From: an uncultured Mycoplasmatota bacterium
Lineage (GTDB): Bacteria; Bacillota_I; Bacilli_A; RF39; UBA660
Length of the DNA stretch: 64,000 nt
Assembly: GCA_946402735.1 (NCBI GenBank)
Contig: CAMIXH010000003.1
Location: 65,472-129,471, forward strand
Reading direction: 5' to 3'
Numbering within the stretch: the stretch's first letter is position 1; each line of letters starts with the position of its first letter. Of this stretch, positions 31,784 through 52,400 are shown piece after piece. Both the position numbers and the translations under genes were made by a program. The notes under the pieces were generated by a model that was not told where the DNA came from, ran no database searches, and saw nothing but the letters and a program-made list of their open reading frames with translations.

Positions 31784-31850
31784 TCCTTTACTTTCTAATA
31801 TAATTTTATCTTAATTTCAATATATTTGTCAATCTATATTGACATTAATA

Positions 31851-33752: not shown

Positions 33753-34562
33753 TTACATACTGCCAAACATTTGTAAAAGAGAGAATAAAATGATTGCCAT
33801 AACACCTGCTCCTGTTGAAACAAGCATTGTCATTGTTTTCTTTTCCATTGTATCTAATCTTTCTTTATACTTAGTATCTCTTGATTTAGCTTGTAAGTTA
33901 GAAATTGTTCTAGAGAATGTAATCAATTGTTCTTGTTTTCTTTCTTGACTACCAAGACTAAGTCTATAAAGAAGTCTCATCATACGCATTGAATCTCTAA
34001 CTGGATAACGTCTAGCAAATGCCATATATGGCTCTATTGTAGAATCTCCAGCATCAATAGATGCAATTAATTCACGAAGACCAGGTTTAAACATTTCTGG
34101 TGCTTCTTCTAAACTTCTAGTAATTGCTACTGGAACTGTATAGTGTTGAATCAAGATTTCTAAACTCTTTAAATAATATGGTAGTTTTAAATTAATTTCA
34201 TGTAGATGAGCTTTATAAAATCTTTTTAACTTACTATAATCATCTTTAAATATTAAATATGTTAAACCAAATACAAGTACTAGTTTTACAGCAAAGTTTA
34301 TTCCAGATACACTAGTAATCATTATTACTATACCTATTATAAATGTTAATATTGCTGTTTTTACTCTTTTATTAAATCTTTCATTAGGATCTACTTTTTC
34401 TCCATATCTACTATTTACATAAAAGTCATAATCTTCTTCTTTTAGTTTTGAGAATACTGCTTTATTATCTGTAACAAATTTATTAAAACTAAATGCTCCT
34501 ATGTAATTAAATACTAATATTAAAATAACTCCTACTGCTAATATTTCAATTCCTGTAAACAT
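33753..34562 (-). CDS. tadC: type II secretion system F-family membrane protein (TadC-like)
   Basis: 269-aa polytopic protein with a central soluble helical domain. Start/stop overlap with the TadB-like gene, downstream of tadA. Confidence 0.6.
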   Translation of the reverse strand: MFTGIEILAVGVILILVFNYIGAFSFNKFVTDNKAVFSKLKEEDYDFYVNSRYGEKVDPNERFNKRVKTAILTFIIGIVIMITSVSGINFAVKLVLVFGLTYLIFKDDYSKLKRFYKAHLHEINLKLPYYLKSLEILIQHYTVPVAITRSLEEAPEMFKPGLRELIASIDAGDSTIEPYMAFARRYPVRDSMRMMRLLYRLSLGSQERKQEQLITFSRTISNLQAKSRDTKYKERLDTMEKKTMTMLVSTGAGVMAIILFSLLQMFGSM

Positions 34563-35461
34563 TACTCAGCACCTACATCCTCATGGTAATATTTAATTCC
34601 TGTAACTAGGAAGAATGTATTTATAAGTATTACCCCATGAAGTAATACTACTACATACCATTGTTCAAGTAATTTTATATAACTATCATTTCCTAATAAT
34701 AATTGAACTAATAATATCAAGAAATATAAGGCTATACCGAATGTTACAAATTGTTTAAAGAAGTTTGCTCTATCAATTCTATCACGATATACACTTTCAA
34801 CAAGCATATCTATATCTTGTGACATACCTTCTAAAGCTTCACCCGAGTCTTTAGAACCTTCTTTTGTTATTTGAATAAATAATTGATGCATATTTCTAAT
34901 AATGTAGTAATCATATTTTTCATTCATAAATCTTATTGCTTCATCTATAGTACCATTATCATATGCCATTTGAATCATTTCTTTAATATCACTTAGAAGT
35001 GGATCTTCAAGTACTCCTGAATCTCTAACACCTTCTAATGATTTAACGAATGATTGAGTTGTGTTATATTCCATAATAACGTTAGTTGTATATATTTGAA
35101 CTTCTTCAAATATATATTCACTATATACCTTTTTGCATCTTAGATATGCTAAATATGGAACAAACAATATTGCCGCTACAGCATATATTATTGACCAAAT
35201 AATACTATAGAAATATAAGTATGCAACAAAGGCAGCTACTACACCGAATAGTATAACTTGTCCTATATATTGCTTTGAAGTATATTCTTGTCCTAATTCT
35301 TTAGCTTTTTCTCTAACTACTTTAAAAGAATAAGGAGCATATCTTTCATAAGTATTACCTATTGTTCTTGCAATAAACTTATATGAATTGTTACCAGTAT
35401 TTTTTCTATAAATATAGATAAATACAAGAATTGCTGCAATTACAAATACTTCTATATACAT
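34562..35461 (-). CDS. tadB: type II secretion system F-family membrane protein (TadB-like)
   Basis: 299-aa protein with the same architecture, immediately after the ATPase. Confidence 0.6.
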   Translation of the reverse strand: MYIEVFVIAAILVFIYIYRKNTGNNSYKFIARTIGNTYERYAPYSFKVVREKAKELGQEYTSKQYIGQVILFGVVAAFVAYLYFYSIIWSIIYAVAAILFVPYLAYLRCKKVYSEYIFEEVQIYTTNVIMEYNTTQSFVKSLEGVRDSGVLEDPLLSDIKEMIQMAYDNGTIDEAIRFMNEKYDYYIIRNMHQLFIQITKEGSKDSGEALEGMSQDIDMLVESVYRDRIDRANFFKQFVTFGIALYFLILLVQLLLGNDSYIKLLEQWYVVVLLHGVILINTFFLVTGIKYYHEDVGAE

Positions 35462-35473
35462 CTTCTACACCTC

Positions 35474-36787
35474 CTACATTTCAACTATTTCTAGTCCATT
35501 ATTAACTTGTGTACTTACCCCCACTCCAACAGCACTTGTTGCTACTTGTGAAACTGGTGAAACCGGAGCAACTGCTGGTTTTGGTGTTACTGGAGCAGCT
35601 GGTGCAACTGGGGCTGCTGGTGCAGCTTGTGTTGTTTGTGCTACCGGAGCAACATTTGGTTGGGCAACTGATGTTGCCTCATTATTTATCTCACTGAATT
35701 CATCAGATGATTCCGTTATTTCTTCTCCTTTTGGAATAAAAGGATCTTCTCTCATTACTACACCTTGACTAGCTAAGTAATCAATTAAATGAGATGTTGG
35801 GTTATTATATCTTTCATTTCCTGCTAAATCTCTTTGATATAAAACATTTGCTTTAGCTTCATTAGCTTCATCATCTACATAGAACTCAACAACTTGAGTA
35901 ATTTCTCTTTGGAATCTATCATATTTCTTAGAATAGAAACCTTTAACATGAATACCCAATTGAATATATCTATGCATACTTTTAACAAATTGATCAATAT
36001 CTTGACTTGATTCAAGAAGTGAATATAAACGCATTGGAATACTTGATGCTTTATCAGAGTGTATTGTTGATAAAATGTTGTGTCCTGAAGAAATACTATT
36101 TCTAACAGCAGTAACAGCTTCAGCAGAACGAACCTCTGATAGTAAAATCCATCTTGGGTTTTGACGCATACAAGCTACAAGAACTTCTGAATATGAAGCA
36201 ATATTATTTGTTTTCATTGCTACAATATCTCTTGTTGGATAAATCTTATCTAAGTGAAGTTCTAGTGTATCTTCTATAGTTATTATCTTTTCATCTTCTT
36301 TTATATGGCTGGCTAAGTATTTAACAAGCTCTGTTTTACCTGAACCAGTTTCTCCACTAACAATTATATTGCAGTGTCCTACAACACAAGTCATTAAGAA
36401 TTCATGAAGTTTTAAAGATACATAATCTTCTTTTATTAATTTTTCTTTATTTAACCTAATCATCGCTGGTGTTTTTCTTATAAGAACAGCGATTCCATTA
36501 GTTGCTATTGAATCGTGAACAAAATTAAGACGTAACTCAGCACTTTCAGCATCTAGTAATGGATGGGCCATGTTAAAAGTTTTACCCATAACGTTAGAAC
36601 ATTGGAAAGCTAGTTTTTCCATAACATCATTATTTAAACCTTCTATATGTTCTTGGTATACACCTTTGGATAAAGATTTAACCCACAATTGTCCACCATT
36701 AGAATATGAAATATCGGTAATATCGTCATTTTCTAATAATGGCATTAGCAAACCAAAATCTATTTGTGAAAATACAATTGCGTCCAT
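35474..36787 (-). CDS. tadA: CpaF/TadA-type secretion ATPase with Pro/Ala/Val-rich C-terminal tail
   Basis: Walker A SGETGSGKTE, IITIEDTLELH, RQNPRWILLSEVR, and HNILSTIHS (His box). Confidence 0.9.
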   Translation of the reverse strand: MDAIVFSQIDFGLLMPLLENDDITDISYSNGGQLWVKSLSKGVYQEHIEGLNNDVMEKLAFQCSNVMGKTFNMAHPLLDAESAELRLNFVHDSIATNGIAVLIRKTPAMIRLNKEKLIKEDYVSLKLHEFLMTCVVGHCNIIVSGETGSGKTELVKYLASHIKEDEKIITIEDTLELHLDKIYPTRDIVAMKTNNIASYSEVLVACMRQNPRWILLSEVRSAEAVTAVRNSISSGHNILSTIHSDKASSIPMRLYSLLESSQDIDQFVKSMHRYIQLGIHVKGFYSKKYDRFQREITQVVEFYVDDEANEAKANVLYQRDLAGNERYNNPTSHLIDYLASQGVVMREDPFIPKGEEITESSDEFSEINNEATSVAQPNVAPVAQTTQAAPAAPVAPAAPVTPKPAVAPVSPVSQVATSAVGVGVSTQVNNGLEIVEM

Positions 36788-36825: not shown

Positions 36826-37620
36826 TTATTCTATTACTGTAATACTCTTATCTACATCTATTTTTTCGATAATATCAGGTTCTAAATATTGAGAATTACT
36901 TTCGATATAAGATAATATCTTTTCATTACCTAATGTAGTTTCAGCATTATAGCTTGCATTTCTTGGAACTGGTAATATTGTTCCACCAGAAATGTAGTAA
37001 GCTCTCTTAATAACTGAGAACATTTCATCTGGTACAGCAAATATTAATGCTTCTGCATTCTTTTGTTCTGCACTCTTCTTGAAAATGTGTGATCCATTTT
37101 CATCTTTAACTGCTAGTACTTCAATACCTTCAATTAAAGGTCCTAAGAACATTTTATTATTTACTGTATTTTGATAATATAAGTCAATTTTATCTCCAGG
37201 ATAAATTGAGTTTCCAAATGTAGAAGTTGAATTAACTTTTAATGAGAAAATTGTGTATCCCTCTTGAATATCAGCCCAAGCTGAGTCTGGCATTTGTTTC
37301 CATTCAACTACTGCACTTCTATAGAACATTCCACCTTCTGGAATATAAGTATTATAATTAACATATTTTCCTAATAAGTCATTTTTATTAATAATAACAT
37401 TACTAGTAATCATAGAATGAGCAACTTTAACAGTTGTAAATAAATCTTCTGTGATTTCTTCTCTTGCTTGAATATCTCTTTTAGCAATTGGTACACTTAC
37501 AGCATTTATTGCTGTATTTACTCTATATCTATAAGCAAAGAATAGAATAACTATACAAGCTATTAATGATAATAAAGTAACAATACTTTTGTTATGAAAT
37601 AATTTACTAAAGAATTTCAT
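36826..37620 (-). CDS. CpaB/RcpC-like Flp pilus assembly protein (TM + SAF domain), copy 2
   Basis: N-terminal TM. VPIAKRDIQAREEITEDLFTTVKV is SAF-like. Collinear with copy 1. Confidence 0.55.
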   Translation of the reverse strand: MKFFSKLFHNKSIVTLLSLIACIVILFFAYRYRVNTAINAVSVPIAKRDIQAREEITEDLFTTVKVAHSMITSNVIINKNDLLGKYVNYNTYIPEGGMFYRSAVVEWKQMPDSAWADIQEGYTIFSLKVNSTSTFGNSIYPGDKIDLYYQNTVNNKMFLGPLIEGIEVLAVKDENGSHIFKKSAEQKNAEALIFAVPDEMFSVIKRAYYISGGTILPVPRNASYNAETTLGNEKILSYIESNSQYLEPDIIEKIDVDKSITVIE

Positions 37621-38438
37621 TATTCACTACACCTCCCTGTTTCTGCCTTATCTAATTGAAATAATTCATCACTTACAGCATTACTTCTAATTTCTTCTTC
37701 AATTAAACTATTTACTATTGCTGTTTGTTTTGGATTTTTTGAATAATTAGCATTTCTTTGAACAGGTATTATTCTACCAACGTTACGATTCTCAGCTATC
37801 TTCAAAAGTCTAAATACTTTGTTTGGCACACTAAATAACAAGAATGCTGGCACTCCTGGATCTCCATTAGTTTCAAATACATTGTTACCATTTGAATCAG
37901 TAACAGATAAAACTTTAATACTTTCAATAAATTTTCCAAACCATACCACTTGTTGTCTATTTACTACTTTAGATGTTTCAAAGTAAAGGTCAATATAGTT
38001 TCCTGGGAAAATTGAATTTCCATATGTTGTTTCAGGATCTACTTTCAAAGCATATACTGTATAACAATCTGGAATATCTTCAAATTCACTTGAAGGCATA
38101 TCCTCCCAATTAACTACCATACTACTATAGAACAAACCATTTTCTGGAATAACTGCCTTATTTGAAACATATTTTCCAATGATTAAGTCCTTATTAATTA
38201 TGGCTCCTCCCTTTACAATTCCACCTGGAACTTTCTTAACCGCAACCATATCAGATGTGATTAATGTTCTAGGTCCAAGCTCCCTTGTTGCATATGGAAC
38301 ACTAACTGGATCAGTAGCTTTCTTAATTCTAAGATAGTATGCTCCATATAGGATTCCTAGCGATGCTAAAATAGCAATAATAGTAACAGTATTTTTATTT
38401 TTTAAAAATCTTTTAATACCAACTAATATACTTCCCAT
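37620..38438 (-). CDS. CpaB/RcpC-like Flp pilus assembly protein (TM + SAF domain), copy 1
   Basis: N-terminal TM. VPYATRELGPRTLITSDMVAVKKV is SAF-like. Shares ..YGNSI(F/Y)PG..IDLY.. with copy 2. Confidence 0.55.
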   Translation of the reverse strand: MGSILVGIKRFLKNKNTVTIIAILASLGILYGAYYLRIKKATDPVSVPYATRELGPRTLITSDMVAVKKVPGGIVKGGAIINKDLIIGKYVSNKAVIPENGLFYSSMVVNWEDMPSSEFEDIPDCYTVYALKVDPETTYGNSIFPGNYIDLYFETSKVVNRQQVVWFGKFIESIKVLSVTDSNGNNVFETNGDPGVPAFLLFSVPNKVFRLLKIAENRNVGRIIPVQRNANYSKNPKQTAIVNSLIEEEIRSNAVSDELFQLDKAETGRCSE

Positions 38439-38585: not shown

Positions 38586-41123
38586 TTAAAATAATGACAA
38601 AACATATATTTTTAATATGAAAAATGCAAATGCTATAAATGATATAGTAAACAATGGATAAACTATTATTTTACTATTCATAAAACGTAGCTTTTTATTA
38701 ATTAGATTTAGTACAACAAATATTAGAAGTGAAACCACTGATATTATAGCCCCCATCTTAAACCATTTTTGTTTATATACTACTTCAATTACATTATTAC
38801 CCTTCTTAACATCTATAGATAACAAGTTATATAAATTGCATTTATAATCAACTTTTTCACCATTAACTCTTACTTCATAATTAGAAGTATAATTAATTGG
38901 TAATAATACACTTGTATCTTCTAAAGCATTATATGTGTATGTTTTAGTTGTACCACTAGTTTTTACACTAACATCTTGATTTCCATATGTATTTATAAAT
39001 TTATTAAATTCAGTTTCATCAAATTCATACAATGTATAATTCATATCTATATTAGGTAATCCAAATTTAACAATTCCATCAACATTACTTTCGAAAGATA
39101 CCATATCTACAAAATACCTAATTGAAATATCTTTATAATATGAGATTTCTTTTTCTTTATACTTAAAGTCTAAATCTACTTGCTCTTGATTCTTCAATTT
39201 TTCATTTGCCTGATCTTTATCAAACTGAATAAACAATATATAAGTTTTACCCTTTTTTGCATTAAATACTAAATAATCATCTTGTATTTTAGAATTAATA
39301 CTATTATAAATATCTTTATTACCATTAAATAATGTTTTGTAAATCTTATTTGAATTAGCAAACACATCTTCTTCTGTTTCATTATATTCTTTTCCGTTAT
39401 ATGGAATTAAATAACTTAGATTATTAATAGCCTTATAATAATTGATATCATCTTTTGAAGTTATTAATTCGTAATACTTTTCATTTAGTTTTCTGCTTGT
39501 TATATAGTACTTGTTTTGCATTAAAGCATTATTAAAGAGATTACCACCTTTTGAATTTATTATAGTATCAGTACCACTATATCCCAAGTATTCTCTTTGA
39601 TCAATTTCACTTTGCTCTACAAAATGAATTCTATTTTCAAGACTAGGTACTTCCAATATATATGGAAAGTTCATATTAGTATCGGATAATTCTAAAACAT
39701 AATTATAATTATCATTTACTAAATCAAATTTATCTCTTAATGTTTGCATAATCAAAGATGTTTGATCTGGTAAGAATTGCATGTATAAAAGACCAAAGTT
39801 TAATGATTGCATTGTTACTAATACTGCTGTTAAGATTATTGCTTTCTTTTTATCATTTTTTAATATTAGCATGTATGCAATTATATAAACTATAAAGATA
39901 ACTAATAAAACTATGTAACTAGGTGTTTGAATATATCCACTTGCATAGTAGTTACCATCATAGAAGTCTTTTCTTGTCACCAAGAACGTGATAACTATAT
40001 TAATCATTAAAAATACAGGAACTAGTATTTTTAAATAACTAGTGTTTTTAGCAGGTTTATAATTGTTATTTAAATAATAAATACTTGTTAATATCATAAA
40101 GAACATTATTTGAAATCCATATCTTAATGGGAATCCAGAATGTGATCCTGTATGCCATAAAGCATTTATTGGTTCAATAAACACTCCAAGTAGTAGCATA
40201 GCTAACATAGCAATAATAAACTTATTATATTTTTTATCTTTCTTAACAAATAATTGTTTAATACATAAAACAAAAGGTATTGCTAAAGTAAATAGATATG
40301 ATGACTTTTCAATAAAGTAAGCAAATATACCATCATTACTTGCATTATTAGCCATTCTAGCACTACTACGAGCAAACATAAATCCTGGTAAGAATAATAT
40401 GCATGACATTAATAAAGAAAATAATGTACATACTAATACTTTAATAGCTTTCTCTTTTTTATGATCAGTTTTCATAAATATTAAAGCAAGTCCTGTTGTT
40501 CCAATTATGAATAATAAATCTAACCATGCTATATAATAATTCAACAATAATGTTATTGTTAATAATACAGTATAAAGTTTCCAATTACCCTTCTCTAATA
40601 GCTCTTTTAATGAATAAACAAGTAATGGATATATTGCTATTGCATCTAAATACAATAAATTAGTAGACATTATAAAGAAATAACAACTAAGTGAATATAT
40701 TAAAGTAAATATACATTTATATAATCCTTCTGTTTTAGGGAATATTTTTCCAATAGCTATATATGTCATTAAAGAAATAAATGCCATTTTTAATAAAAAT
40801 ACATATGAAATTGTATATGGAATACTATCTCTACTAAATAATCCAATTATCCAACATAGTGGAGAAATAAAACCATTTCCTATTAAAGAACCAAATGCAT
40901 TTAATCCACTTCCAAGATTCCAATCGAAAAGTGCAGTACTTCTAAAATGTAACACATCCCATAATTTATAATATGCAGGGATATATCCACTATCAAAATC
41001 TATTAATGTAATAGTTCTTGATCCAAATGGGTATATATTACTGCAATAAAAAATAATACCATACCCCGCAATAGTTAATAAAACGCATATAAGTAAATAC
41101 TTATCAAATTTAAATTTTTTCAT
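38586..41123 (-). CDS. YfhO-family polytopic membrane glycosyltransferase
   Basis: 845 aa. The N-terminus YPFGSRTITLIDFDSGYIPAYYKLWDVL...WNLGSGLNAFG matches the YfhO signature. Many TMs and a C-terminal extracytoplasmic domain. Confidence 0.8.
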   Translation of the reverse strand: MKKFKFDKYLLICVLLTIAGYGIIFYCSNIYPFGSRTITLIDFDSGYIPAYYKLWDVLHFRSTALFDWNLGSGLNAFGSLIGNGFISPLCWIIGLFSRDSIPYTISYVFLLKMAFISLMTYIAIGKIFPKTEGLYKCIFTLIYSLSCYFFIMSTNLLYLDAIAIYPLLVYSLKELLEKGNWKLYTVLLTITLLLNYYIAWLDLLFIIGTTGLALIFMKTDHKKEKAIKVLVCTLFSLLMSCILFLPGFMFARSSARMANNASNDGIFAYFIEKSSYLFTLAIPFVLCIKQLFVKKDKKYNKFIIAMLAMLLLGVFIEPINALWHTGSHSGFPLRYGFQIMFFMILTSIYYLNNNYKPAKNTSYLKILVPVFLMINIVITFLVTRKDFYDGNYYASGYIQTPSYIVLLVIFIVYIIAYMLILKNDKKKAIILTAVLVTMQSLNFGLLYMQFLPDQTSLIMQTLRDKFDLVNDNYNYVLELSDTNMNFPYILEVPSLENRIHFVEQSEIDQREYLGYSGTDTIINSKGGNLFNNALMQNKYYITSRKLNEKYYELITSKDDINYYKAINNLSYLIPYNGKEYNETEEDVFANSNKIYKTLFNGNKDIYNSINSKIQDDYLVFNAKKGKTYILFIQFDKDQANEKLKNQEQVDLDFKYKEKEISYYKDISIRYFVDMVSFESNVDGIVKFGLPNIDMNYTLYEFDETEFNKFINTYGNQDVSVKTSGTTKTYTYNALEDTSVLLPINYTSNYEVRVNGEKVDYKCNLYNLLSIDVKKGNNVIEVVYKQKWFKMGAIISVVSLLIFVVLNLINKKLRFMNSKIIVYPLFTISFIAFAFFILKIYVLSLF

Positions 41124-41204: not shown

Positions 41205-42017
41205 TTAATGTGAATTAGCAAGTGCTGTCTTCATTCTTTCTAAATCAGCAGTGTTAATAGTTCCATTACTATCTGTATCAGCAATGATTCTTTGTCTTGC
41301 TGTTAAACCACCAGTATTACATGTATTCTTGCTTAAGCATCCTGCTATTATATCTACATCTGTTTGATTGAAGTTTCCATCTCCATTAACATCTAGAGGT
41401 GTTCCACTATATAATGCTTTCTTTAATAAGATAACATCTATATTATTACATGTATTATCATTGTTAACATCAATAACACTCTTCTTATCGCCACAAGATC
41501 CACGATTTAATGAAATGAATTGTTCAATTAGTGGAATATCATCTTCACTAAAGTTTCCATCTCCATTAAAATCTCCAGTAGTTGTTGAATAAATAATATT
41601 GAATTCTCCTGTTGTTTCAGTTGTTTCTAAAATACCAGTTATGAATGTATTTACTTCAATATCAGTTCCATTATTCTTAATTATTGTTTCACCTGTATTA
41701 GTTCTTATTCTAATTGTTGCTTTTGGTGGATATTCATAAATATCATAAAAGTCTAATTGATAAGTTCTATCAGGATTAACACTTTCAGCAAATCTTCTTG
41801 TAAATACTGAAACAAATTTTTCTCTAGACATAACTAATTTTCCAGATTTCATATATGTTCCATAATCGATAGCATCATACATAGATGCTCTTAGTATTTC
41901 TCTACTTAAATAATAATCTTGTTCATTTGTTGTTGTTAAATTTTGTACTAGGAATAATACAGCTATAATAACTAATCCTAGACCAATAATCATATAACCC
42001 CACATGGATTCTTTCAT
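41205..42017 (-). CDS. pilin-like (TadE-type leader) protein with two C-terminal dockerin modules
   Basis: Leader MKESMWG plus the helix YMIIGLGLVIIAVLFLV. Four EF-hand loops: DFNGDGNFSEDD, DVNNDNTCNNID, DVNGDGNFNQTD and DTDSNGTINTAD, each followed by an amphipathic helix. Confidence 0.55.
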   Translation of the reverse strand: MKESMWGYMIIGLGLVIIAVLFLVQNLTTTNEQDYYLSREILRASMYDAIDYGTYMKSGKLVMSREKFVSVFTRRFAESVNPDRTYQLDFYDIYEYPPKATIRIRTNTGETIIKNNGTDIEVNTFITGILETTETTGEFNIIYSTTTGDFNGDGNFSEDDIPLIEQFISLNRGSCGDKKSVIDVNNDNTCNNIDVILLKKALYSGTPLDVNGDGNFNQTDVDIIAGCLSKNTCNTGGLTARQRIIADTDSNGTINTADLERMKTALANSH

Positions 42018-42072: not shown

Positions 42073-42714
42073 TTAAATACCATGTTTAACTTTTCTATAT
42101 TTATCACTAAATAATGATATAGAAAGAATAGTACTAATTACTGCTAAAAGTATTTTAATGCCCCAAGTAGTTAAGAAAGTCATTACTTTTGACATCATCG
42201 TTTCTTCTGTTTCTACCTCTTCTTTAGTAGTTTTTTGACTAATAGTATGATTATAATTATAAATTGATTTTTCTAATAATGATTTAGTAACTTCAACGTT
42301 AGTAAATTGTGACTTACACATAAGTAGAGTTTCTTCATAACCATTACACATACTACTACCATAATATTTATTAAAATAAGGCTCTTTTGTTACGATTCTT
42401 TTTAAAGCAGTGCAACCATCATCTCCATAAATATCAATGGATACTTTTTCACCACAAGGTATTTTAGAAATAACTATTGTATTATCAGATCCTACTTTAT
42501 ATTTCTTATCATTATATTCAGCATACATTCCTCCAAATAAGTTATAAATTGTTATTGTAAAAGAATTAGCTGATTTTATATAGTTGTTATCATAAGTAAT
42601 ATCTTCTGATAAACTTATATACTCCTTATGTTTCTCCTTATCACAAGTTTTTTCTTCATCTGCATAAACAATAAAAGGAATCATTAATAGTATTAATAAA
42701 ACTATTTTTTTCAT
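42073..42714 (-). CDS. exported Cys-containing protein with C-terminal TM anchor (paralog of 48699..49355)
   Basis: Signal peptide and a C-terminal TM plus basic tail. SIDIYGDDGCTALKRIVTKEPYFNKYYGSSMCNGYEETLLMCKSQFTN aligns with TIEVYGNKESKCDGQLLKKLSYTVPRFNRKVKDARCVGNSDLELCKTFTN. Confidence 0.5.
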   Translation of the reverse strand: MKKIVLLILLMIPFIVYADEEKTCDKEKHKEYISLSEDITYDNNYIKSANSFTITIYNLFGGMYAEYNDKKYKVGSDNTIVISKIPCGEKVSIDIYGDDGCTALKRIVTKEPYFNKYYGSSMCNGYEETLLMCKSQFTNVEVTKSLLEKSIYNYNHTISQKTTKEEVETEETMMSKVMTFLTTWGIKILLAVISTILSISLFSDKYRKVKHGI

Positions 42715-44384
42715 TGCTTACCACCCTTTTCTTCTTTTAATAATACTGCATGTACTACAAGTCTTCTATTATTACCACCAGTACATGTAGATAATGTTAA
42801 TATTTTATCATTAACGCCAACTTTAGTATCATTCTTAAACATGCTTCTTTTTCTGATCATATTTATGAATTTTTCTTTATCTTTATTTGAACTAAATTTA
42901 ACTTTTAAATAATCAGTTGTGTAATCTACTTTATATACAGAGAATATTTTGAAACTCATTGTTCCTTTCTCTGTAGTTAAAGATATTACTAAATTATCCT
43001 CTTCTTTTCTCCAACTACTGTTAGTTACTTTTCTAAGTGTTCCAAACATAGTTCCATTTAACATACTATGTCCATATATTATTGTATTATCATCCATTTT
43101 TTTAACATTATTTCTATAATCAAAGAATAAAGCACCAATACTTGTTTTTCTCTTATAAATATCATGCTTTAAATAATAATTATTATCTGAATGCTTTAAT
43201 ACTGGATAAGATATTTTAGTATTTTTAACTATCAAATACCCTTGTACTTCTTTATTAATCTTTTTTAGCCCTTTTATTGAAGGAGTAAATGTATATCTAT
43301 CTGTAATTTCTTTCTCAGTTAATTTATTAGCATCTTCCATTCCATCTTCAGAAACTTCAGGAATATAAACTGATTCTTCTTCACCTAGTTCATCTAATTC
43401 GTCATCACTTGTATCTATAAAACTACTAGCATCACTTAATATTCTATTTCTCATTTGTTCTACATTGATTTCTTCAATATAATCATATGACTTTACTATT
43501 ATTAATGATACTACGCATACATAAATACATAATATTGATGCTAATTTTAAATTATTAAATGTTAATTGTTTAAATAAATTAGAACTCAAGAATGAATTAG
43601 CATATATTATTCTAAACTCACAAGTATAACTTTCTTTGCATTCATTACTTATTTTCTTTAACCATTCAAAGTTACTTACTATAAAGTCTCCTTTATCATA
43701 TCCTTGATGCAAATAAATAATTACATTTTTAGACTCATCATTTTTAACTTGTTTAACTATTGCTTCAATTAAACTTTTAGAATATGTATAAATATGAATA
43801 GCTTTAAGATTATAGTTTAATTTAAGAAACTCTCTTAAATCATCCATTACACCTGGATATTCCTCATTTATTTTAATTACCTTTTTATAATATAATGTAT
43901 CTATTTCAAAAGCATCTTGTTGCATTAAGAATCTATCACTTATTTTTATGTCAGATGAAAATACAACTTCACATCCTCTTTTTGAAAATTCATTTTTAAT
44001 CTCTTTAGGCATATAAAAGCAATATATATGTTTAAGTGTATTTAATTCTAGTAATTGATTATAATCAGTAAGACTAAGTGTAGAATCAAATTCTAAAACT
44101 AAAGTCTCAATACTTAGTTTTTTCATTACTTCAATTGGATATTTAAATGTTACTAATCTTAATATCTTTATTGAAGTAAATCCTCCGCTTGATAATACTC
44201 CAGTTATATCTTTTATATGTTTTTTAAAATATTTTAGATCATAATAAAGAGAATCTTTATAATAATTGTTTTTATTAATAAAGACAGTTTCATCATCAAG
44301 AAGCGTTCTATAATTAAACACTAATGTATTATCTAATTTTGTTAAAACAAAATATTCCTTCATTATATCTCCAATATTATACAT
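42711..44384 (-). CDS. class B-like sortase fused to a ~280-aa N-terminal cytoplasmic domain
   Basis: The C-terminal third carries NTIIYGHSM (His), ILTLSTCTGG (TLxTC Cys) and NRRLVVHAV (Arg). A TM (LASILCIYVCVVSLIIV) lies around residue 285. Confidence 0.7.
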   Translation of the reverse strand: MYNIGDIMKEYFVLTKLDNTLVFNYRTLLDDETVFINKNNYYKDSLYYDLKYFKKHIKDITGVLSSGGFTSIKILRLVTFKYPIEVMKKLSIETLVLEFDSTLSLTDYNQLLELNTLKHIYCFYMPKEIKNEFSKRGCEVVFSSDIKISDRFLMQQDAFEIDTLYYKKVIKINEEYPGVMDDLREFLKLNYNLKAIHIYTYSKSLIEAIVKQVKNDESKNVIIYLHQGYDKGDFIVSNFEWLKKISNECKESYTCEFRIIYANSFLSSNLFKQLTFNNLKLASILCIYVCVVSLIIVKSYDYIEEINVEQMRNRILSDASSFIDTSDDELDELGEEESVYIPEVSEDGMEDANKLTEKEITDRYTFTPSIKGLKKINKEVQGYLIVKNTKISYPVLKHSDNNYYLKHDIYKRKTSIGALFFDYRNNVKKMDDNTIIYGHSMLNGTMFGTLRKVTNSSWRKEEDNLVISLTTEKGTMSFKIFSVYKVDYTTDYLKVKFSSNKDKEKFINMIRKRSMFKNDTKVGVNDKILTLSTCTGGNNRRLVVHAVLLKEEKGGKQ

Positions 44385-44425
44385 AATAATAATATCATAA
44401 TTTTGAATAAAAAAAAATATGAAAC

Positions 44426-44956
44426 TTATTCAATTCCATATTTGTTTATAATATCTTGAAGGGTTCTATAGTTAATCATTCCCTTTGAACTATCTCTAGC
44501 TACTAAGGCATCTCCTTCTTTAATATATATTAATAAAGGAGCTTCATTAATATCTAGAGCTACATTAGGATATTTATTTCTTAACATTCCTATATATTCT
44601 TTATTTTTTAAATCTGTAACATCCCAATAAATAACTCTATCTGTGAGATTTTTATTTTCTATTTCTTTATATAGTTTATTTTCCATTCTATATATTTTTT
44701 TATCACCAGTATAACTTACATACATTATAGCTTCATTAGCTTCTAACATAGCATAATCAAAATCTTGAGTATTAATTTGATTAATTACTTTATTATTAGA
44801 GAAAATACCAATTTCAATTCTATTATTATCATAGTTTAAATAAACAGTTCTAACATATAAAGATAAAGCTATTACCAATAAAGATACACCAAATACTATA
44901 TAATAATTCTTTTTTGGTATCTTTCTTTCTGTTATTTTTTCAAATATTTTTTTCAT
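44426..44956 (-). CDS. membrane-anchored protein, possibly thioredoxin-fold without CxxC
   Basis: N-terminal TM. IMYVSYTGDKKIYRM and APLLIYIKEGDALV resemble the Trx-fold strand pattern, but no cysteines are present. The assignment is weak. Confidence 0.35.
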   Translation of the reverse strand: MKKIFEKITERKIPKKNYYIVFGVSLLVIALSLYVRTVYLNYDNNRIEIGIFSNNKVINQINTQDFDYAMLEANEAIMYVSYTGDKKIYRMENKLYKEIENKNLTDRVIYWDVTDLKNKEYIGMLRNKYPNVALDINEAPLLIYIKEGDALVARDSSKGMINYRTLQDIINKYGIE

Positions 44957-45014: not shown

Positions 45015-45046
45015 TAAAAAAGAAAGATTTTTAAAATCTTTCTTTA
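45015..45046 (-). terminator. terminator after giant gene 2
   Basis: Arms aagaaagatt(tt) (from 45021) and (aa)aatctttctt (to 45045). The upstream A-run gives a U-tract on the minus strand. Confidence 0.6.
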
Positions 45047-48000
45047 ATTCATATTATCAGTATTTACATTACCATATTGACCTGATCTATATTGTGAAGC
45101 GTTTCCTCTTAATACATCTAAGAAGTAACTATTACAATTGTAATAAATACCATCTACTGGATCCTTTTCACAATTATAAATTAGTTCATCAGAATATCCA
45201 CCATTACTATTGTTATATTCTTTAATATTTCTAATTTGTGTTGGATCTAATGTAATACTTGCATCTAAATACTTTTCATCAGTCTTTAGATCACTAGCAG
45301 AGTTTTCAATAGCTTCTTTTGCTTTTTGACCATTAGCAGTATTCCAGTTTGATCCTTCTTTAGTATTTCCTGATGGGAATAGATTTGCAGGATCAACGTT
45401 TCTATATAATGCTGCACTCTTATCTTCACAACTTGTCTTAGTTGGATCATCACAGTTTGGTTTTTGAACATCTACATAACATTTGAATGTATTGTCATCA
45501 TTAATTGTTAGTTTTTGAGTTGTATCATTTCTATAGAACATTAATGGTTTAATTGTTTGAGTTACTGTACATCTATGATATAAACCACCACTTAGTGAAG
45601 TTCTACAAGCATCTAAGTTGTAAGCATCTTTATCAACTGGATAAGAGAAGCTTGCTAATGTTAATAGGTTAGCATTTCCTGTTCCTCTAACAACTTTACC
45701 AGTTCCCATGTCTGCTTGGAATTTATCATTATTATAATAATTTATTTCAGCAGTTACTGTGAATCTAGCATAATCATTTGTTGGAACATCTATATTCTTA
45801 CCTCTAAATAATGTGTATGTCTTCTTTGCAGCTGGTTTATTTGCTGGGTAATTATATGATAATGCATCATTGTTTGGATCATATCCATAACATAATTCTC
45901 CAGTCTTATCTTTACAATAACTAATTCCTGATAACTTACCAGTAAATTTAGAAGCAGCACTGATATTATTTACTCTATTATTTGTTCCTGTTACATCTTT
46001 AATAAGTGCTCCAAATCCATATTTAATTGTATCAGCATTTGAACTTGTTGTCTTATTACCTTCTTTATCTGTTCCTAAACCATATGCATTATTTGAACTA
46101 TAAACTTCTTTAACTTTCTTCATTAATGAAGTTGTATAGTTACGTGGAATATCAACTCCAGCATTCTTGATTTGTTCGGTAGTATAGAAGTTACAATTAT
46201 AAATATCATAAATTATTTGATTTAAGTTGTCATTTCTTTCATTTTCGCCACTAGCTTTTGTTTTTAAGATATTAAATAATCCATCAAAAGTCTTAGTTTT
46301 CTTTAATTCTGTATATTCTTCAGAAGTTAAACCATAAGCAGTCTTTAATTCTTCTAAATTTCCTAAATGAGTATAGTAGATTTCAGATACACAATTTCTC
46401 TTTTCTGCTACGATACTTGTTAGTTTGTAATCTAACTTATTAGTTTTCTTAGCAGGGAATTCTATATCATACATGAATGTTTTACCAGATATAGCTTTTA
46501 CTTTATCTGCTAATGTATATTCAACTTCATCACTACAATATACTCTACAGAAGTTAGTATTAACACCAAAGTAACTACTATAATCGTATCTAGTCTTAGC
46601 AGCAGATTCATTTAAGTTAAGAATACACTTTAATGATGGATCTTTTACTGTTGCACTATATACTCCATTGTAATTATTTTGATCATTTACACACTTGTCG
46701 TCTCCCTCAGTTCTTAAGCTTGTGTCATCACATCCTCCTGCACACTTATAATTTGTTACTGAGAAAGTTGTTTCTGTTTCTTGTCTATCAACTTCAACTG
46801 GTTCTCCTTCTTCATGACCTTCTTCAGTTTCAGTCTCATCTTTGAAGAATGCGAATAATGTTTGATTGATATTAGCATTAGCACAAGAATAATACTTTCT
46901 TACGCTATAACTACTTCTTGTTCTTTCATAAGTTACTTTAATTTCAATATCTTTTCCAGCACTTTCTGTTATGTCACATATTGCAAAATTGAATTTTTCA
47001 GTTCTACATCCAGAACCTTTAATACATTTTTCCATTTCTTTTTCAGTTACAAGAATGTTTCCATCTTCGTCAACAACTTGAACTTTAACTTTACAATATG
47101 GTTTTATTTGAGCAATTACAGCATCTGCTTCACTAGCAGTTTTGCCTTCATTGATTAATTTTGTTCTTAATGCTCCTAATTCAGAATCAGTACATCCTAC
47201 TTGTTCATCATGAATTTCATTCCAGAATGATTCATGTTCGAATGATACTTCAATCCAAGATTCAGTAACTGTTTGAGCAGTTGCTTCTTCCATACTGAAT
47301 TCACTTTGTAATGTAGCTCCAGTTGGTTTAGAACCATCTCCACCACCAAATAATCTACTTAAGTGGTTCTTCATGTATTCGTTACCGATTACAGTATTGA
47401 AGAATAATTCAAATCCTACTAGATAATCAGAGTCATCACCACACATAACTCCTCTCATTGTTTTAACTTTAGCACTATTTTGATTTCTTAATTCCTCAGT
47501 AGTTAAGCAAGCAATCTTTTCAAATGTACTACCATTTAAAACTCCCATTGTATTTCCATTTTCTTCTGGTGGGATATGTGCGTATGTTTTAGCAACATCA
47601 TAGAATTTTTCTTTTGCTACATACATTATATAATCATGTGTATGTTTATAAACATTAACATACTCATCATTTTCATCTGTTGTATAGTATGTAATAGTCT
47701 TACAATCTGAACCACTTACATTTGCAATACCTGTTCTTTCATCTCCAGCTTGTCCAGAGTGAATAGACCAAAGTCTAAGTGCAGTATTAATTGCATCATC
47801 GCTTGTATTATAATAAGCACCTTCGATTAATATGTTAGCATAACCACAATCTACAGTACTATAACTGCTTGCACAGTCATAAACATTAAATGAATCATCA
47901 TATTGATAATTACCTACTCCACCATTGAACTTTTGACTTGGGTTAACACAATATGCTGGTTGACCATCTATTTCAAAGTCAGGAGTACAAGCTTCTATAT

Positions 48001-48697
48001 TTTTATAATATCTTTCGCATGTATATGTAGGACAGTTTAATGTATATTCTGCTACACAAGTACCATCATCACCAAAGCTTTCTCTAGCTGTTGTGATAAC
48101 ATCATCTGTAGCACCTATTTTACTATAAGAATATTCTTTACTATATGTACAAGTTGTTCCTCTATCAACATGTCCTGTTGGAGTATAACCATTTGGGCAT
48201 TCATAATATACAACTGTTCTACTATTACTTCCACCACATGTTTCAGTATCTGCATCCCATGTACAGCCTCCAGTACATTCTGATTCACTCTTATCTGGAC
48301 AAGTATTAGTTGTATCATATGAATGATAACTTGCAGTTGTTGTCTTTGTACATGTTACTTTTGCTGATACGTATCTATCAGGATCACTACATCTTGGTAC
48401 TTCTAGATGCATTATATCTTTGCCATCGTAGCTTTCAACAGTAATTCTTTCTGTTTCATAACCACTATCAAATGCGTCATCATATGTTGAGTAAGTTCCA
48501 CCTTCAACTTTATAATTTCCTGTCTTAGTCCATTTACATACTGGTAATAATACATCGAAACCAGCAGGTGTAATTCCTGTTTCAGTAATTGTTACTTCTT
48601 CATCATCAGGATTACAAACTAATGATGCATTAACAGTAGTTGTAAATAAAGCTACTAAGAATAAAGCAATAAATAATTTAAAGACATTCTTTTTCAT
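45044..48697 (-). CDS. giant secreted cysteine-rich protein, paralog 2 (function unknown; putative adhesin)
   Basis: I place the start at the ATG at 48697 (MKKNVFKLFIALFLVALFTTTVNA signal peptide, GAGAGGAA RBS, 1 nt after the upstream stop). The track extends to 48760. About 43 Cys by hand count. Collinear with 49448..53392. Confidence 0.7.
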   Translation of the reverse strand: MKKNVFKLFIALFLVALFTTTVNASLVCNPDDEEVTITETGITPAGFDVLLPVCKWTKTGNYKVEGGTYSTYDDAFDSGYETERITVESYDGKDIMHLEVPRCSDPDRYVSAKVTCTKTTTASYHSYDTTNTCPDKSESECTGGCTWDADTETCGGSNSRTVVYYECPNGYTPTGHVDRGTTCTYSKEYSYSKIGATDDVITTARESFGDDGTCVAEYTLNCPTYTCERYYKNIEACTPDFEIDGQPAYCVNPSQKFNGGVGNYQYDDSFNVYDCASSYSTVDCGYANILIEGAYYNTSDDAINTALRLWSIHSGQAGDERTGIANVSGSDCKTITYYTTDENDEYVNVYKHTHDYIMYVAKEKFYDVAKTYAHIPPEENGNTMGVLNGSTFEKIACLTTEELRNQNSAKVKTMRGVMCGDDSDYLVGFELFFNTVIGNEYMKNHLSRLFGGGDGSKPTGATLQSEFSMEEATAQTVTESWIEVSFEHESFWNEIHDEQVGCTDSELGALRTKLINEGKTASEADAVIAQIKPYCKVKVQVVDEDGNILVTEKEMEKCIKGSGCRTEKFNFAICDITESAGKDIEIKVTYERTRSSYSVRKYYSCANANINQTLFAFFKDETETEEGHEEGEPVEVDRQETETTFSVTNYKCAGGCDDTSLRTEGDDKCVNDQNNYNGVYSATVKDPSLKCILNLNESAAKTRYDYSSYFGVNTNFCRVYCSDEVEYTLADKVKAISGKTFMYDIEFPAKKTNKLDYKLTSIVAEKRNCVSEIYYTHLGNLEELKTAYGLTSEEYTELKKTKTFDGLFNILKTKASGENERNDNLNQIIYDIYNCNFYTTEQIKNAGVDIPRNYTTSLMKKVKEVYSSNNAYGLGTDKEGNKTTSSNADTIKYGFGALIKDVTGTNNRVNNISAASKFTGKLSGISYCKDKTGELCYGYDPNNDALSYNYPANKPAAKKTYTLFRGKNIDVPTNDYARFTVTAEINYYNNDKFQADMGTGKVVRGTGNANLLTLASFSYPVDKDAYNLDACRTSLSGGLYHRCTVTQTIKPLMFYRNDTTQKLTINDDNTFKCYVDVQKPNCDDPTKTSCEDKSAALYRNVDPANLFPSGNTKEGSNWNTANGQKAKEAIENSASDLKTDEKYLDASITLDPTQIRNIKEYNNSNGGYSDELIYNCEKDPVDGIYYNCNSYFLDVLRGNASQYRSGQYGNVNTDNMN

Positions 48698-48698
48698 A

Positions 48699-49355
48699 TT
48701 ATCTATTCCTCTCTTCTTTTTTAACTTGTCTAATTTTCCTAATGTATATAATTCCAACAATTAAGATAGGTAATACTATAAATAAACCATAACTGATGAT
48801 AGTTGATATTACATCGCTAACAGTAGAACCTTTTTCTTTAATATATTTGCTGATTTCTTTATTAAATTGTTCTTCAGTCATATCTTTTGTTGAATTAGTA
48901 AAAGTCTTACATAATTCTAAATCGCTATTACCTACACATCTTGCATCTTTTACTTTTCTATTAAATCTAGGAACAGTATATGATAACTTCTTAAGTAATT
49001 GTCCATCACATTTACTTTCCTTATTTCCATATACTTCAATTGTATATGTCTCCTCTTCTAAATTAGTAAAAGCTCCAACGCCATATAGATTAACATCTTT
49101 AAAGAATTGTCCATTTGCTTTGTTTCCTTTAGAATCAGCAACTACAATTCTAACATCCTCTCTATATGGAGTAATTGATAAGAAATAAGCATATTTAGAT
49201 ATGTCACTATTCATTACAGTGTTTTCTGTAAACTTAGCTTCTACCTTAGTAGCCCATTCATTTAAATCCTCGTCATTACACTCAGCATTAACGTAATTAA
49301 CGGCGATTAAACTAGCTACTATGAATCCCATCATAATTCTAATAATTTTTTTCAT
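48699..49355 (-). CDS. exported Cys-containing protein with C-terminal TM anchor (paralog of 42073..42714)
   Basis: Signal peptide and a C-terminal TM plus RKIRQVKKEERNR tail. Its stop lies 1 nt before the giant gene 2 start. Confidence 0.5.
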   Translation of the reverse strand: MKKIIRIMMGFIVASLIAVNYVNAECNDEDLNEWATKVEAKFTENTVMNSDISKYAYFLSITPYREDVRIVVADSKGNKANGQFFKDVNLYGVGAFTNLEEETYTIEVYGNKESKCDGQLLKKLSYTVPRFNRKVKDARCVGNSDLELCKTFTNSTKDMTEEQFNKEISKYIKEKGSTVSDVISTIISYGLFIVLPILIVGIIYIRKIRQVKKEERNR

Positions 49356-49410
49356 TTACTCACCTACTATCTAATCAATATTTTATCAAAAAAATATTGA
49401 TTATTCAACA

Positions 49411-49440
49411 ATAAAAGAGAAGATTAAGTAATCTTCTCTC
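49411..49440 (-). terminator. terminator after giant gene 1
   Basis: Arms gagaagatt (49417-49425) and aatcttctc (49430-49438), loop aagt, with a U-tract on the minus strand. Confidence 0.65.
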
Positions 49441-49447
49441 TATTTTT

Positions 49448-52400
49448 TTAATTTTTACCATTATGTTTTTGATCTATTGTTCCATATTCTCCATTTGTTC
49501 TTAATTCTTCCATAAATGGACTTATACAATTTCGGTATGTATCCCCTGAAATCTGGCAGTTAAACACGGCCTCATTAACATATGTATTATTGTTGTTATA
49601 ACTTTTGATATTCTCAATCTGTACTGGATTTAATGTAATACTATATTGAAGATATTCCTCTGTTGTCCTTATAGTACTAGCAGATTGAGTTATATTTAGC
49701 GTTGCTTTTTTACCATTTTCTGTGCCCCAGTTACTATTCGTTTTCGTTGTATATCCATCTGTAGAAGATGGGAACATATTAGCTATATCAACATTTCTAT
49801 AAGTTGTTCCAATTCTACATATTTGTTTTGATGGATCACATTCAGGTGATGGAATTTCAACATCAACATAACAGCTATGATTCTTATGATTATTAACAGT
49901 CGTATAGAATGAATCATTACTATTTTTTCTAAAGTATGTTTCAATTCTATTATAGCTATGTGTAATATTACATCTTCTATAATTAATTCCTTTTAAGAAA
50001 TCTCTATCTGAGCATACTCCTGAATTATATGCATTACGATCAACAGTATATGCATATGCATCAAGTAATAAGTAATTTTTACCTCTTTCACTACCAGCTG
50101 TTATAACTTTACCATCTGGTTTAACTTGATATCTAGAACTGTTATAGAATGATATATCTGTTTGAACAGTAAACATTACATAATCATTTATTGGTATATC
50201 TACTTTATCGCTTGAGAATACTTGACCACTTATACGAGTATTATCACCAAACGTTTCTTTAACATCTAATGTTTCTGTTGAACTAGTTTTATTAGTTGGA
50301 TAATTATATTCATTTTCTGGATGATCTAAATCGTAATAGAAGCAATCCTCTCCAGAACAATATATTAAATCACTAAGTGTATTTTTTGAACTAACAACAG
50401 ATTTCATTACAGCTGTTTTTCCTGCAGTTGGAGCTCCAAAATCATATTGAATATTATTCATACTAACACATTCTCTATCTCTTTCGGCATCACTAGCTCC
50501 AAATTTACAATTAGTATCTGTTCCAATACCATAATTATTACTCTTTTGGAATTTCTTAATAATTGTTTCTTTTATATTTTTAGCTTTATAATCTTTAGGT
50601 TTAACAACTCCAGCATCTTTTATTTCTTTTTCTGTATATAAATTACAATTGAATAAATCATATAGAATTCTATTGATGTTTTCTGTTCTTCCACCTTCGT
50701 TTTGAGCTTTTTTAACTAAAACTTCAAATAATGTTTTCCAACTATCAATACCTTCTATTTCTTCATCTGTTATACCATCAGAAGTTCCACGTGTAGTCTT
50801 ACCTAAATTATATATGCCTTTCCAATCAACACTATCAGAGAATTTATTTACATCATAGTATATTTCTGAAACACAGTTTCTCTTTTCTTCTACTATATTT
50901 GTAAATAAATATCTAATGTTTTTATCGTTTCTTACTGATCTTTCAATATCATAATAGAATCTCTTACCAGAAGTTTCTTTTATCTTATCGGCCATATGGA
51001 ATACTACTTCATCACTACAATAAATTCTACAGAATCTATTTCCGACTTCAAACTCATCACTATAATTGTATGAGTTCTTATAAGCAGCACTTCCCATATT
51101 TAAAATACATTTTAATGATGGATCTTTAAATGATGAATCATAAGTTCTATTATAATTGCTTGCGTTGTCATCACAATTATCTTTAGAATCTTCTCTTATT
51201 GAATAATCATCACAGAAACCAGCACATTTATAGTTACGTATTTCAAATGTCTCTGAATATGGTTCTCTTTCCTCTGTTGGATCAGTACTTGGATGAGTTT
51301 CTGTATCTGTCAAATCCGCATCAAATCCAAATAATATTTGATTATTTAATGGGTTAGAACATGATACGTATTTTGTAACACTTTTACTACTTGGTGATTT
51401 TTCATAAGTTACAACAATTTTAATTGGTGTTGTAATACTTTCATCTAAATCACAAATAGCAAAGTTTTCTAATTTTCTTCTACAATAGTTTTTAATACAA
51501 TAATCAGGATATGCAGGTCCATAACCTGGTAGTTCTCTGCCTCTTCCATCAACTAATGATATTTCAACTCTACAGAATGGTTCGATTTGTTCCTTTTGTT
51601 CTGCTGTTATTTTACCAGAACTTACCATTTCATCTAATTTTGTACAATCTATTTTAAGATTTGAGTTATGAGTTACTTCTCTTAATTCTTCAAAAGTAAC
51701 TTGAACATATTGTGTTCCATCTTCCGAAGTCATTAATTCTGCTGTTTCTACTTCTTCACTTATTTCCCCATCAAATAAATCTCTTAAGTGTTCTTGCATT
51801 TTATTGTTTCCAAGAACTGTATTAGCAAGTAAAGCAAGAGCTACTTTGTATTCTTGATCTCCTGTTCCACAGGCTACACCTAATTTATTTTTATCACATG
51901 TTATTTCAAATACACTCAAATCTCCTGTAGGAATTATTTCATCTTTATATCTAACTTTATCTAATATTACTTTTGCAAATTCCTTATATGTTTCTACATA
52001 AGGATTAATTAAGTCTCCTGAATATCCATTAGATAACATAAAGTAAGTTGCAGTTCCACAATTAGTACCTGTTCTATTTGATATACCAATTGTATCAAAA
52101 CCAGCTTGTTGTGTATGAACACCCCAAAGTCTCATTGCAAATTCTATTGTTTTGTCAGGGATTTCATATTTTGCTCCCTCAATTAATATATTTGCATATC
52201 CACAATCTACAGTACTATAACTTGTTTCACAATTTTTAACACTAAAATCAGAGTCCGGAATATACTCAGCAGTTGTTGAATATCCTGAAGAGAACTCTTG
52301 TCCAGGGTTAACACAGTAAACTGTTCCTCCTGTTGGAGTTTGAAACACTGGAGTACATAACTCGACTTCTTTATCTTCTTTTGTACAAGTATAAACTGGG

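Follow-up and report, generated by a model that had tools for sequence, protein, structure and literature searches.

The concept of modular pilins is well established (PMC8179133). In Streptococcus sanguinis, the modular minor pilin PilB combines a pilin module with a vWA domain, and PilC combines a pilin module with a lectin domain (PMC8179133, PMC9934059); the main text of PMC8179133 does not mention a dockerin as graft. The present analysis concerns a 64-kb stretch of contig CAMIXH010000003.1 from an uncultured bacterium, which is called the window hereafter, and therein the gene at 41205..42017 on the minus strand, whose product consists of an N-terminal DUF5411 module and two C-terminal dockerins. 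This protein represents a real variant, not described before, of a modular pilin-like carrier, with dockerins as the graft. A preliminary description of the window had stated that no precedent was known for a pilin-like protein with dockerins, and indeed we found no protein of this architecture in the literature on dockerins with pilins, on minor pilins or on Tad/Flp systems.

Like PilB and PilC, the DUF5411-dockerin protein has a small N-terminal carrier with a long hydrophobic helix and a grafted generic functional domain. In both cases, one carrier bears many different grafts across species, the gene lies beside what is or appears to be a type IV filament machine, and the organism is a monoderm. 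The N-termini differ. Whereas the S. sanguinis pilins carry the canonical class III signal (IPR012902; G|F-x-x-x-E), and their processing and incorporation have been demonstrated, the DUF5411 proteins, known here from sequence, have the signature MKESxW[G/A]Y without Glu5, and their predicted fold does not match solved pilins.

Two further groups of systems come close. Pilus-like clusters of uncultured and gut Firmicutes (including TANB77) have been published, and, as far as can be likened by description, they share with the present cluster a CpaF-type ATPase and proteins in which a short peptide in the cytoplasm is followed by a single membrane helix and a domain outside. One of the two papers on such clusters already names DUF5411 as a component, but these papers contain neither dockerin fusions nor a shared MKE leader nor a coupling to giant proteins. 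The other group comprises organisms that are thought to live attached to partners and in which pili, very large surface proteins and dockerins co-occur: the host-dependent Omnitrophota have giant open reading frames (ORFs) with dockerins alongside a Tad complex (PMC10066038), and syntrophic sulfate reducers have cohesin/dockerin proteins beside PilY1 (PMC10553843). In contrast to the protein described here, these diderm organisms have their dockerins on giants or on separate proteins and not in fusion with a pilin-like module. Together with the non-cellulosomal dockerins of lysozyme-type enzymes (PMC6487960), they are ecological parallels.

Two tandem dockerins on a DUF5411 carrier

The ORF 41205..42017 starts with ATG, encodes 270 amino acids plus the stop codon, and is preceded at a distance of about 8 nt by the ribosome-binding site GAAGAGAGG. 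It is one real ORF on the strand that holds nearly all genes of the window (G+C about 26%), and the coordinates assigned in the preliminary description are exact. Public metagenomes contain a protein identical to its product (P0001).

The C-terminal part of the protein is formed by dockerin 1 (residues 147-205; 41403..41579) and dockerin 2 (residues 206-270; 41208..41402), both encoded, like all their parts, on the minus strand. The Ca loops of dockerin 1 are DFNGDGNFSEDD (residues 149-160; 41538..41573) and DVNNDNTCNNID (residues 183-194; 41436..41471), and those of dockerin 2 are DVNGDGNFNQTD (residues 209-220; 41358..41393) and DTDSNGTINTAD (residues 247-258; 41244..41279). The four EF-hand-type loops are therefore found where they had been described, but the claim that each has Asp or Asn at position 9 does not hold for loop 1, which has Ser at this position. 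Pfam Dockerin_1 (PF00404) matches the whole protein in two stretches (E=6.3e-14, 52.3 bits), and the two halves, when scanned singly, reach 35.1 and 32.2 bits, both above the curated cut-off of 22.9 bits. On these statistics, for the whole protein as well as for each half, chance EF-hand-like repeats are rejected. By sequence search against the PDB, dockerin 1 matches 6kge_D (CelL of C. acetobutylicum, 1.6e-4) and dockerin 2 matches 2ccl_B (Xyn10B of C. thermocellum, 2e-4; also 1ohz). In the AlphaFold2 model, the 120 C-terminal residues have a predicted local distance difference test score (pLDDT) of 83-95 and a helix after every Ca loop, and Foldseek superposes one predicted module on the solved dockerin 2ccl_B with a probability of 1.00, a template-modelling score (TM) of 0.82 and a root-mean-square deviation of 1.6 Å over 59 columns, the E-value of the whole model being only 0.2. 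Pfam and structure prediction, which had been named as checks of the two proposed dockerin modules, thus both speak for them. Across 19 dockerin-bearing homologues with 45-83% identity, the Ca-ligand positions 1, 3, 5 and 12 in all four loops are with few exceptions occupied by Asp or Asn, and the two helices of every module are kept as well. Because of the Pfam and PDB matches, the predicted fold and the conservation of the Ca ligands, the two tandem dockerins must be considered real and under selection: by profile and model evidence, the protein ends in two genuine type I dockerins, for which Ca binding is predicted.

Each of these modules has two 12-residue Ca loops with helices, as is the case in the cellulosomal type I dockerins of Xyn10B (1ohz/2ccl) and CelL (6kge). 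Unlike the latter, they are arranged in tandem on a membrane-anchored pilin-like carrier instead of a secreted glycoside hydrolase, and they lack a cellulosome context. A second dockerin protein is encoded at 23041..25308 on the plus strand. It is autolysin-like, with two SH3_3 domains, a GH73-type N-acetylglucosaminidase region (PDB 6fxo, 6.6e-12), a Cadherin-like module and a C-terminal dockerin, so that dockerins are used on at least two surface proteins of the organism.

The N-terminal part had been described as a leader with a helix and a globular region, and this part is real as well, as it corresponds to Pfam DUF5411 (PF17424; residues 1-133, E=1e-49, 168.3 bits against a cut-off of 30); none of the NCBIfam families is matched by the protein. 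The carrier module extends over residues 1-146 (41580..42017, minus strand). Its AlphaFold2 model, which was built from an alignment of 145 sequences and has a pLDDT of 87.5 and a predicted TM (pTM) of 0.76, consists of a single helix at residues 3-48 (46 residues, pLDDT about 90), two short helices at residues 52-58 and 65-79, and an antiparallel sheet with the four strands 86-94, 99-113, 116-132 and 139-145. The long helix begins with the hydrophobic segment YMIIGLGLVIIAVLFLV (residues 8-24; 41946..41996, minus strand). This predicted layout is compatible with the general layout of a type IV pilin, albeit not diagnostic of it.

A word-index search yielded 129 relatives of the protein. The closest 36 clusters (at 90% identity) are all DUF5411-dockerin proteins of 263-348 amino acids with two or three dockerin modules, and the remaining relatives have the DUF5411 module only (about 150 amino acids), or the module with Peptidase_C39_2 or with extensions that lack a known identity. 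An exhaustive profile search detected DUF5411 in 621 representative clusters, and in all 150 matches listed the domain begins at the first residues (profile position 1 to about 140), the exceptions being N-terminally truncated fragments and one match in two stretches. Among the matches listed, protein lengths range from 87 to 1224 amino acids, and the C-terminal additions, as surveyed in 140 representatives, include Flg_new/InlB-type repeats, Big_2, Peptidase_M15, M23, VanY, C39_2, PT-HINT and dockerin. As DUF5411 is always N-terminal and the C-terminal domains vary, it is, judged by this domain arrangement, an obligatory N-terminal carrier for exchangeable extracellular domains.

The common leader and the downstream gene cluster

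The protein begins with the leader-like heptapeptide MKESMWG (41997..42017, minus strand), at which it may be cleaved. In the 260 members of the DUF5411 family that were collected, the leader MKESxW[G/A]Y is nearly invariant, with Gly or Ala preceding the Tyr. Only 3 of the 158 ORFs of the window start with M[KR]E[SA], namely the DUF5411-dockerin gene and the genes of an 80-residue and a 168-residue protein, and in each of them a hydrophobic stretch comes next. The same holds on a larger scale. We compared the gene order in 67 related loci by tblastn, and the order of the window is found again in the annotated loci of five homologues and in 61 species-level genome loci. The 61 genome loci are all from uncultured gut or rumen bacteria, labelled as Bacilli, ‘Tenericutes’, ‘Mollicutes’, Erysipelotrichaceae or ‘Clostridium sp. 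CAG:1000/524’, and the complete genomes among the related loci have sizes of 1.2-1.5 Mb. When both strands of these loci were scanned for an M[KR]E[SA]xxG leader with a following hydrophobic stretch, only three classes were found, always on the strand of the cluster: the DUF5411 proteins, a protein of 68-109 amino acids and a protein of 140-190 amino acids. The 80-residue protein of the window (MKEATGELNMTVVTLIAVAAL...; 33438..33680, minus strand) belongs to the class of 68-109 amino acids, which has a nearly identical N-terminus in 40 species and a small, variable, Cys-containing C-terminus, and which looks like a major pilin; Pfam gave no match to the 80-residue protein, Flp_Fap included. 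The 168-residue protein (MRESIGGAWLFGIVIVF..., MRESIGGAWLFGIV...; 32852..33358, minus strand) has the leader in common with the DUF5411-dockerin protein as well and would be a second pilin-like protein.

In one related locus (L004:1922-3010), a 362-residue protein with a canonical N_methyl prepilin motif (PF07963) and DUF6273 is encoded beside PedC-like and sortase genes, and at least this relative would therefore have classical type IV pilin processing.

Downstream of the DUF5411-dockerin gene, the same strand encodes, in this order, YfhO, two CpaB/RcpC-like proteins, an ATPase, two polytopic membrane proteins, the 80-residue and 168-residue proteins, two proteins of 326 and 122 amino acids, LtaS and a 204-residue protein. 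For the two CpaB/RcpC-like proteins (36826..38438, minus strand), Pfam RcpC gives 31.4 and 20.7 bits, i.e. one above and one below the cut-off of 28.8, and TIGR03177 gives 40 and 30.7 bits, below its cut-off of 71. The CpaF/TadA-like ATPase of the secretion superfamily (35474..36787, minus strand) matches Pfam T2SSE with 7.3e-28, and its best relatives in the PDB are CpaF (1.6e-19), followed by FlaI and VirB11. As it falls short of every NCBIfam equivalog cut-off, it must be a diverged member of the TadA/CpaF family. The end of this ATPase (about residues 360-437) is a low-complexity tail rich in Pro, Ala and Val, which to our knowledge appears unusual for a family of cytoplasmic ATPases. The two polytopic membrane proteins (299 and 269 amino acids; 33753..35461, minus strand) fit TadB and TadC by their position and by their number of membrane segments, and the gene order 3' of the ATPase is kept in 47-49 of the 67 loci. 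The 299-residue protein (34562..35461) has a mean column identity of 78% in 31 species at a length of 297-303 amino acids and is far more conserved than its neighbours. The genes of the 326- and 122-residue proteins (31415..32831, minus strand) are conserved members of the cluster by synteny, as they are present in the same order in 38 and 35 of the 67 loci, respectively, and the 122-residue protein (31415..31783) has a weak match to T4SS_pilin. A 391-residue protein at 57582..58757 (minus strand) has a two-helix membrane N-terminus that resembles the latter, and its C-terminus is Peptidase_C39_2-like, a domain that other species have as a fusion partner of DUF5411.

An ATPase gene is found downstream of the DUF5411 gene on the same strand in 53 of the 67 loci by tblastn, and in 52-53 loci the CpaB-like and ATPase genes follow the DUF5411 gene on its own strand, with direct adjacency in the five annotated ones. 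In the window, yfhO (38586..41123, minus strand), encoding a YfhO-family membrane protein, lies in between; elsewhere this is only the case in locus L041, where it is inverted. By its gene content, the downstream machine would be a type IV filament machine of a diverged, Tad-like kind, and it is conserved among uncultured gut and rumen Bacilli with small genomes.

The similarity to Tad/Flp systems consists in the ATPase with CpaF as closest relative, the two CpaB-like proteins, the two polytopic membrane proteins 3' of the ATPase, and a very small major-pilin-like protein accompanied by larger pilin-like ones, which may be compared with the pseudopilins TadE/F and TadG. TadG-like proteins have an N-terminal hydrophobic segment and a large extracellular domain. 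The Tad-type setting of the preliminary description is thus borne out by the CpaB/RcpC-like genes and the CpaF-related ATPase, but other components differ: Flp, TadE and T2SSF are without Pfam matches, the G|xxxxEY motif is lacking, no TadV gene is nearby, and the host is a monoderm. On the other hand, the cluster has additional genes that are absent from classical Tad loci, namely those of giant Cys-rich proteins, a class B sortase fusion and a PedC-like protein. The VirB11-like scores of the ATPase and the weak T4SS_pilin match also led us to consider an origin from a conjugation-type type IV secretion system, which was rejected, as CpaF is structurally closest and CpaB-like genes are present; in addition, the cluster showed no genes of the VirB4/VirD4 type, and its locus is a chromosomal one that keeps its synteny in about 60 species.

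Upstream neighbours and giant secreted proteins

On the other side of the DUF5411-dockerin gene, the region 42073..44956 (minus strand) encodes a 213-residue protein with a signal peptide and a C-terminal anchor, a class B sortase fusion of 557 amino acids and a PedC-like DUF6568 protein. In the fusion protein (42711..44384), the class B sortase (TIGR03064, 169 bits) follows an N-terminal region of about 350 residues that contains no known domain, and no obvious sorting signal for sortase B was seen in the neighbouring proteins. Farther upstream, at 45044..53419 (minus strand), two paralogous giant secreted Cys-rich proteins of 1238 amino acids (45044..48760) and 1323 amino acids (49448..53419) are encoded, with a membrane-anchored protein of 218 residues between them. 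The giants share 15 invariant cysteines across 24 homologues, and neither a Pfam domain nor any sequence similarity to PDB entries was detected, also with the profile of the 24 sequences.

There is a genetic coupling between the giants and DUF5411. The end of a giant gene (1000-1600 amino acids, with signal peptide) coincides with the DUF5411 start or comes within about 20 nt of it in about 40 loci, and two such pairs of giant and DUF5411 genes are present in some related genomes. In case of the dockerin-type loci (the window, L001, L006-L009 and L039), there are two giants and a single DUF5411-dockerin gene, with the PedC-like, sortase and 213-residue protein genes in between, and the order of these three genes recurs in L001 and L006-L009. 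At the far end of the window, two adjacent small ORFs of 108 and 103 amino acids (61610..62247, minus strand) have no convincing Pfam match.

A proposed pilin-like subunit and its candidate docking partners

How could such a protein function? The DUF5411 module would consist of a cytoplasmic peptide of 7 residues, a helix of about 46 residues, the first part of which would span the membrane, and a small alpha/beta head, and the protein would be inserted with its N-terminus inside and its C-terminus outside. Sharing its N-terminal recognition signature with the small major-pilin-like protein, it would be handled by the same machine as a low-abundance subunit, a minor and probably a tip or priming one. 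The two Ca-binding type I dockerins would then be exposed outside the wall, where they could tether a partner protein. We consider it moderately probable that the protein is indeed a minor subunit of modular, pilin-like type, which bears a pair of dockerins as graft and belongs to a diverged Tad-like filament system. What argues for this assignment is that the carrier is obligatorily N-terminal and has a long N-terminal helix, that its signature recurs in the major-pilin-like protein but in none of the other bitopic proteins of the cluster, that the synteny is conserved, and that the catalogue of grafts resembles the one of modular pilins.

Several observations weigh against it. The N-terminus had been described as prepilin-like, which is correct for the short leader and the long hydrophobic helix, but the canonical prepilin motif and matches to the Pfam pilin models are missing: the protein has neither the class III signal G|F/M-x-x-x-E nor the Flp motif G|xxxxEY, it reads YMIIGLG after Gly7 and thus lacks Glu5, and N_methyl (PF07963), Flp and TadE do not match it. 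No A24 prepilin peptidase is encoded among the window genes scanned or within 10 kb on either side of the five annotated related loci. When the model of the N-domain was compared with the PDB by Foldseek, no solved pilin was found, and the best matches (E 0.01-0.06, TM about 0.2) were NTF2-like folds; with the full-length model, only the dockerin was matched, the N-domain giving insignificant NTF2-like matches, and the sequence profile of the N-domain matched no PDB sequence. A fold search without a pilin match neither proves nor excludes a pilin. The statistics for the common N-terminus are weak, as the three leader classes are aligned by hhalign over their first 19-27 residues only, with probabilities of 17-44%, and BLASTP of DUF5411 against the 168- and 80-residue proteins likewise confines the likeness to the N-terminal start. 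Pilin sets usually align over the N-terminus only. As to the machine, Pfam T2SSF did not match the 299- and 269-residue putative platform proteins at E<=10, and the family profile of the 299-residue protein found no match in the PDB, which is why we speak of a diverged, Tad-like machine and not of a Tad system. Moreover, yfhO and terminator-like hairpins part the DUF5411-dockerin gene from the machine operon in the window. Finally, Pfam detected no cohesin in about 37 of the roughly 60 large ORFs of the window, nor in the flanks of the related loci. Since no canonical prepilin motif and no pilin fold match were found and, in the genes scanned, neither a peptidase nor a cohesin, the incorporation into a fibre and the cohesin partner are what we infer, and the same applies to the processing of the leader and to the identity of the dockerin ligand.

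What alternatives exist for a minor subunit of a filament? The main rival is that DUF5411 is a non-polymerising bitopic membrane accessory, in the manner of VirB8, PilN/PilO or TadG, by which the C-terminal domain is kept within the zone of the wall. The dockerins would then recruit a partner to the assembly site, and in other species the carrier is fused directly to peptidoglycan hydrolases, which would open the thick wall. Such a role would be in line with the weak NTF2-like matches, which are the sole fold matches of the N-domain, as the NTF2-like fold is the fold of VirB8-type bitopic assembly proteins, and also with the missing prepilin motif and peptidase gene. The fusions to Peptidase_M15, M23, VanY and C39_2 would suit an enzyme that acts beside the membrane, and the dockerin of the GH73-type autolysin at 23041..25308 hints at a dockerin-based targeting of wall enzymes. 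However, the cytoplasmic part of 7 residues is shared with the major-pilin-like protein and not with the CpaB-like, PedC-like or 204-residue bitopic proteins, no VirB8 is among the 50 Foldseek matches listed, and the fusions to adhesin repeats (Flg_new, Big_2) as well as the tight coupling to the giants are better explained by a distal display, so that we regard an accessory role as rather unlikely. It would also be conceivable that the gene is merely a neighbour of the pilus-like cluster and encodes an independent surface protein with an N-terminal anchor. In the window, the gene is set apart transcriptionally not only by yfhO but also by an AT-rich hairpin with a T-run that follows its stop codon, and by a promoter-like site that the CpaB-like genes have to themselves. 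But the yfhO insertion is peculiar to the window genome, with only L041 having one in opposite orientation, and the same-strand position upstream of the CpaB-like and ATPase genes in most of the related loci, the direct adjacency in all annotated ones, and the N-terminal signature in common with two other cluster proteins make such an independence very improbable.

A separate question is what the dockerins of the protein bind. The preliminary description had pointed to a cohesin-like module in the product of 25319..26770, which we reject as a cohesin, as Pfam assigns this module to the Cadherin-like beta-sandwiches and the PDB search gave no match to a cohesin. PDB searches with 23041..25308, with giant B and with the profile of the 24 giants did not reveal a cohesin either; as 64 kb of the genome were inspected, it may lie elsewhere. 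The giant secreted orphan proteins, which are genetically coupled to the DUF5411 genes, are the likeliest partners of the dockerins, and a cohesin-type module encoded elsewhere is the alternative. It is also possible, though we have our doubts, that there is no cohesin partner at all and that the dockerins are Ca2+-dependent structural or adhesive modules, which bind a ligand other than a cohesin or just make the exposed end stiffer, as has been proposed for many non-cellulosomal dockerins. The cohesin-free set of scanned proteins and flanks would agree with this, as would the dockerins reported on non-cellulosomal proteins such as lysozyme-type enzymes (PMC6487960) and giants of host-dependent bacteria (PMC10066038), and the organism, judged from related records, appears to be a non-cellulolytic gut bacterium with a small genome. 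On the other hand, the extent of the inspected region leaves room for a cohesin gene, the window encodes a second dockerin protein, which points to a dedicated docking system, and all Ca ligands as well as the two helices of every module are kept over 45-83% identity, as is expected of a functional binding module. A more far-reaching idea, which we consider improbable, is that the DUF5411-dockerin protein at the tip of a Tad-like filament constitutes a ‘pluggable’ pilus, whose two or three dockerins would capture the organism's own giants as exchangeable tip cargo, or else the cohesin-bearing scaffoldins of neighbouring fibre- or starch-degraders.

Modular pilins explain how simple filaments acquire new functions, and with a dockerin graft their repertoire would gain a general plug-and-socket connector, and cohesin-dockerin biology would extend beyond cellulosomes into pilus-mediated attachment. 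For DUF5411, a working role emerges, namely that of N-terminal carrier in a diverged Tad-like system, and a conserved cluster of about 15-20 genes is outlined in uncultured, small-genome gut and rumen Bacilli, which includes a pilus-like machine, giant Cys-rich orphan proteins and a sortase B fusion. The attachment of such Bacilli to hosts or partners thereby becomes directly testable. If a pluggable pilus docked onto the scaffoldins of such neighbours, it would enable a gut bacterium with a small genome to attach to a producer of cellulosomes or amylosomes and to feed beside it.

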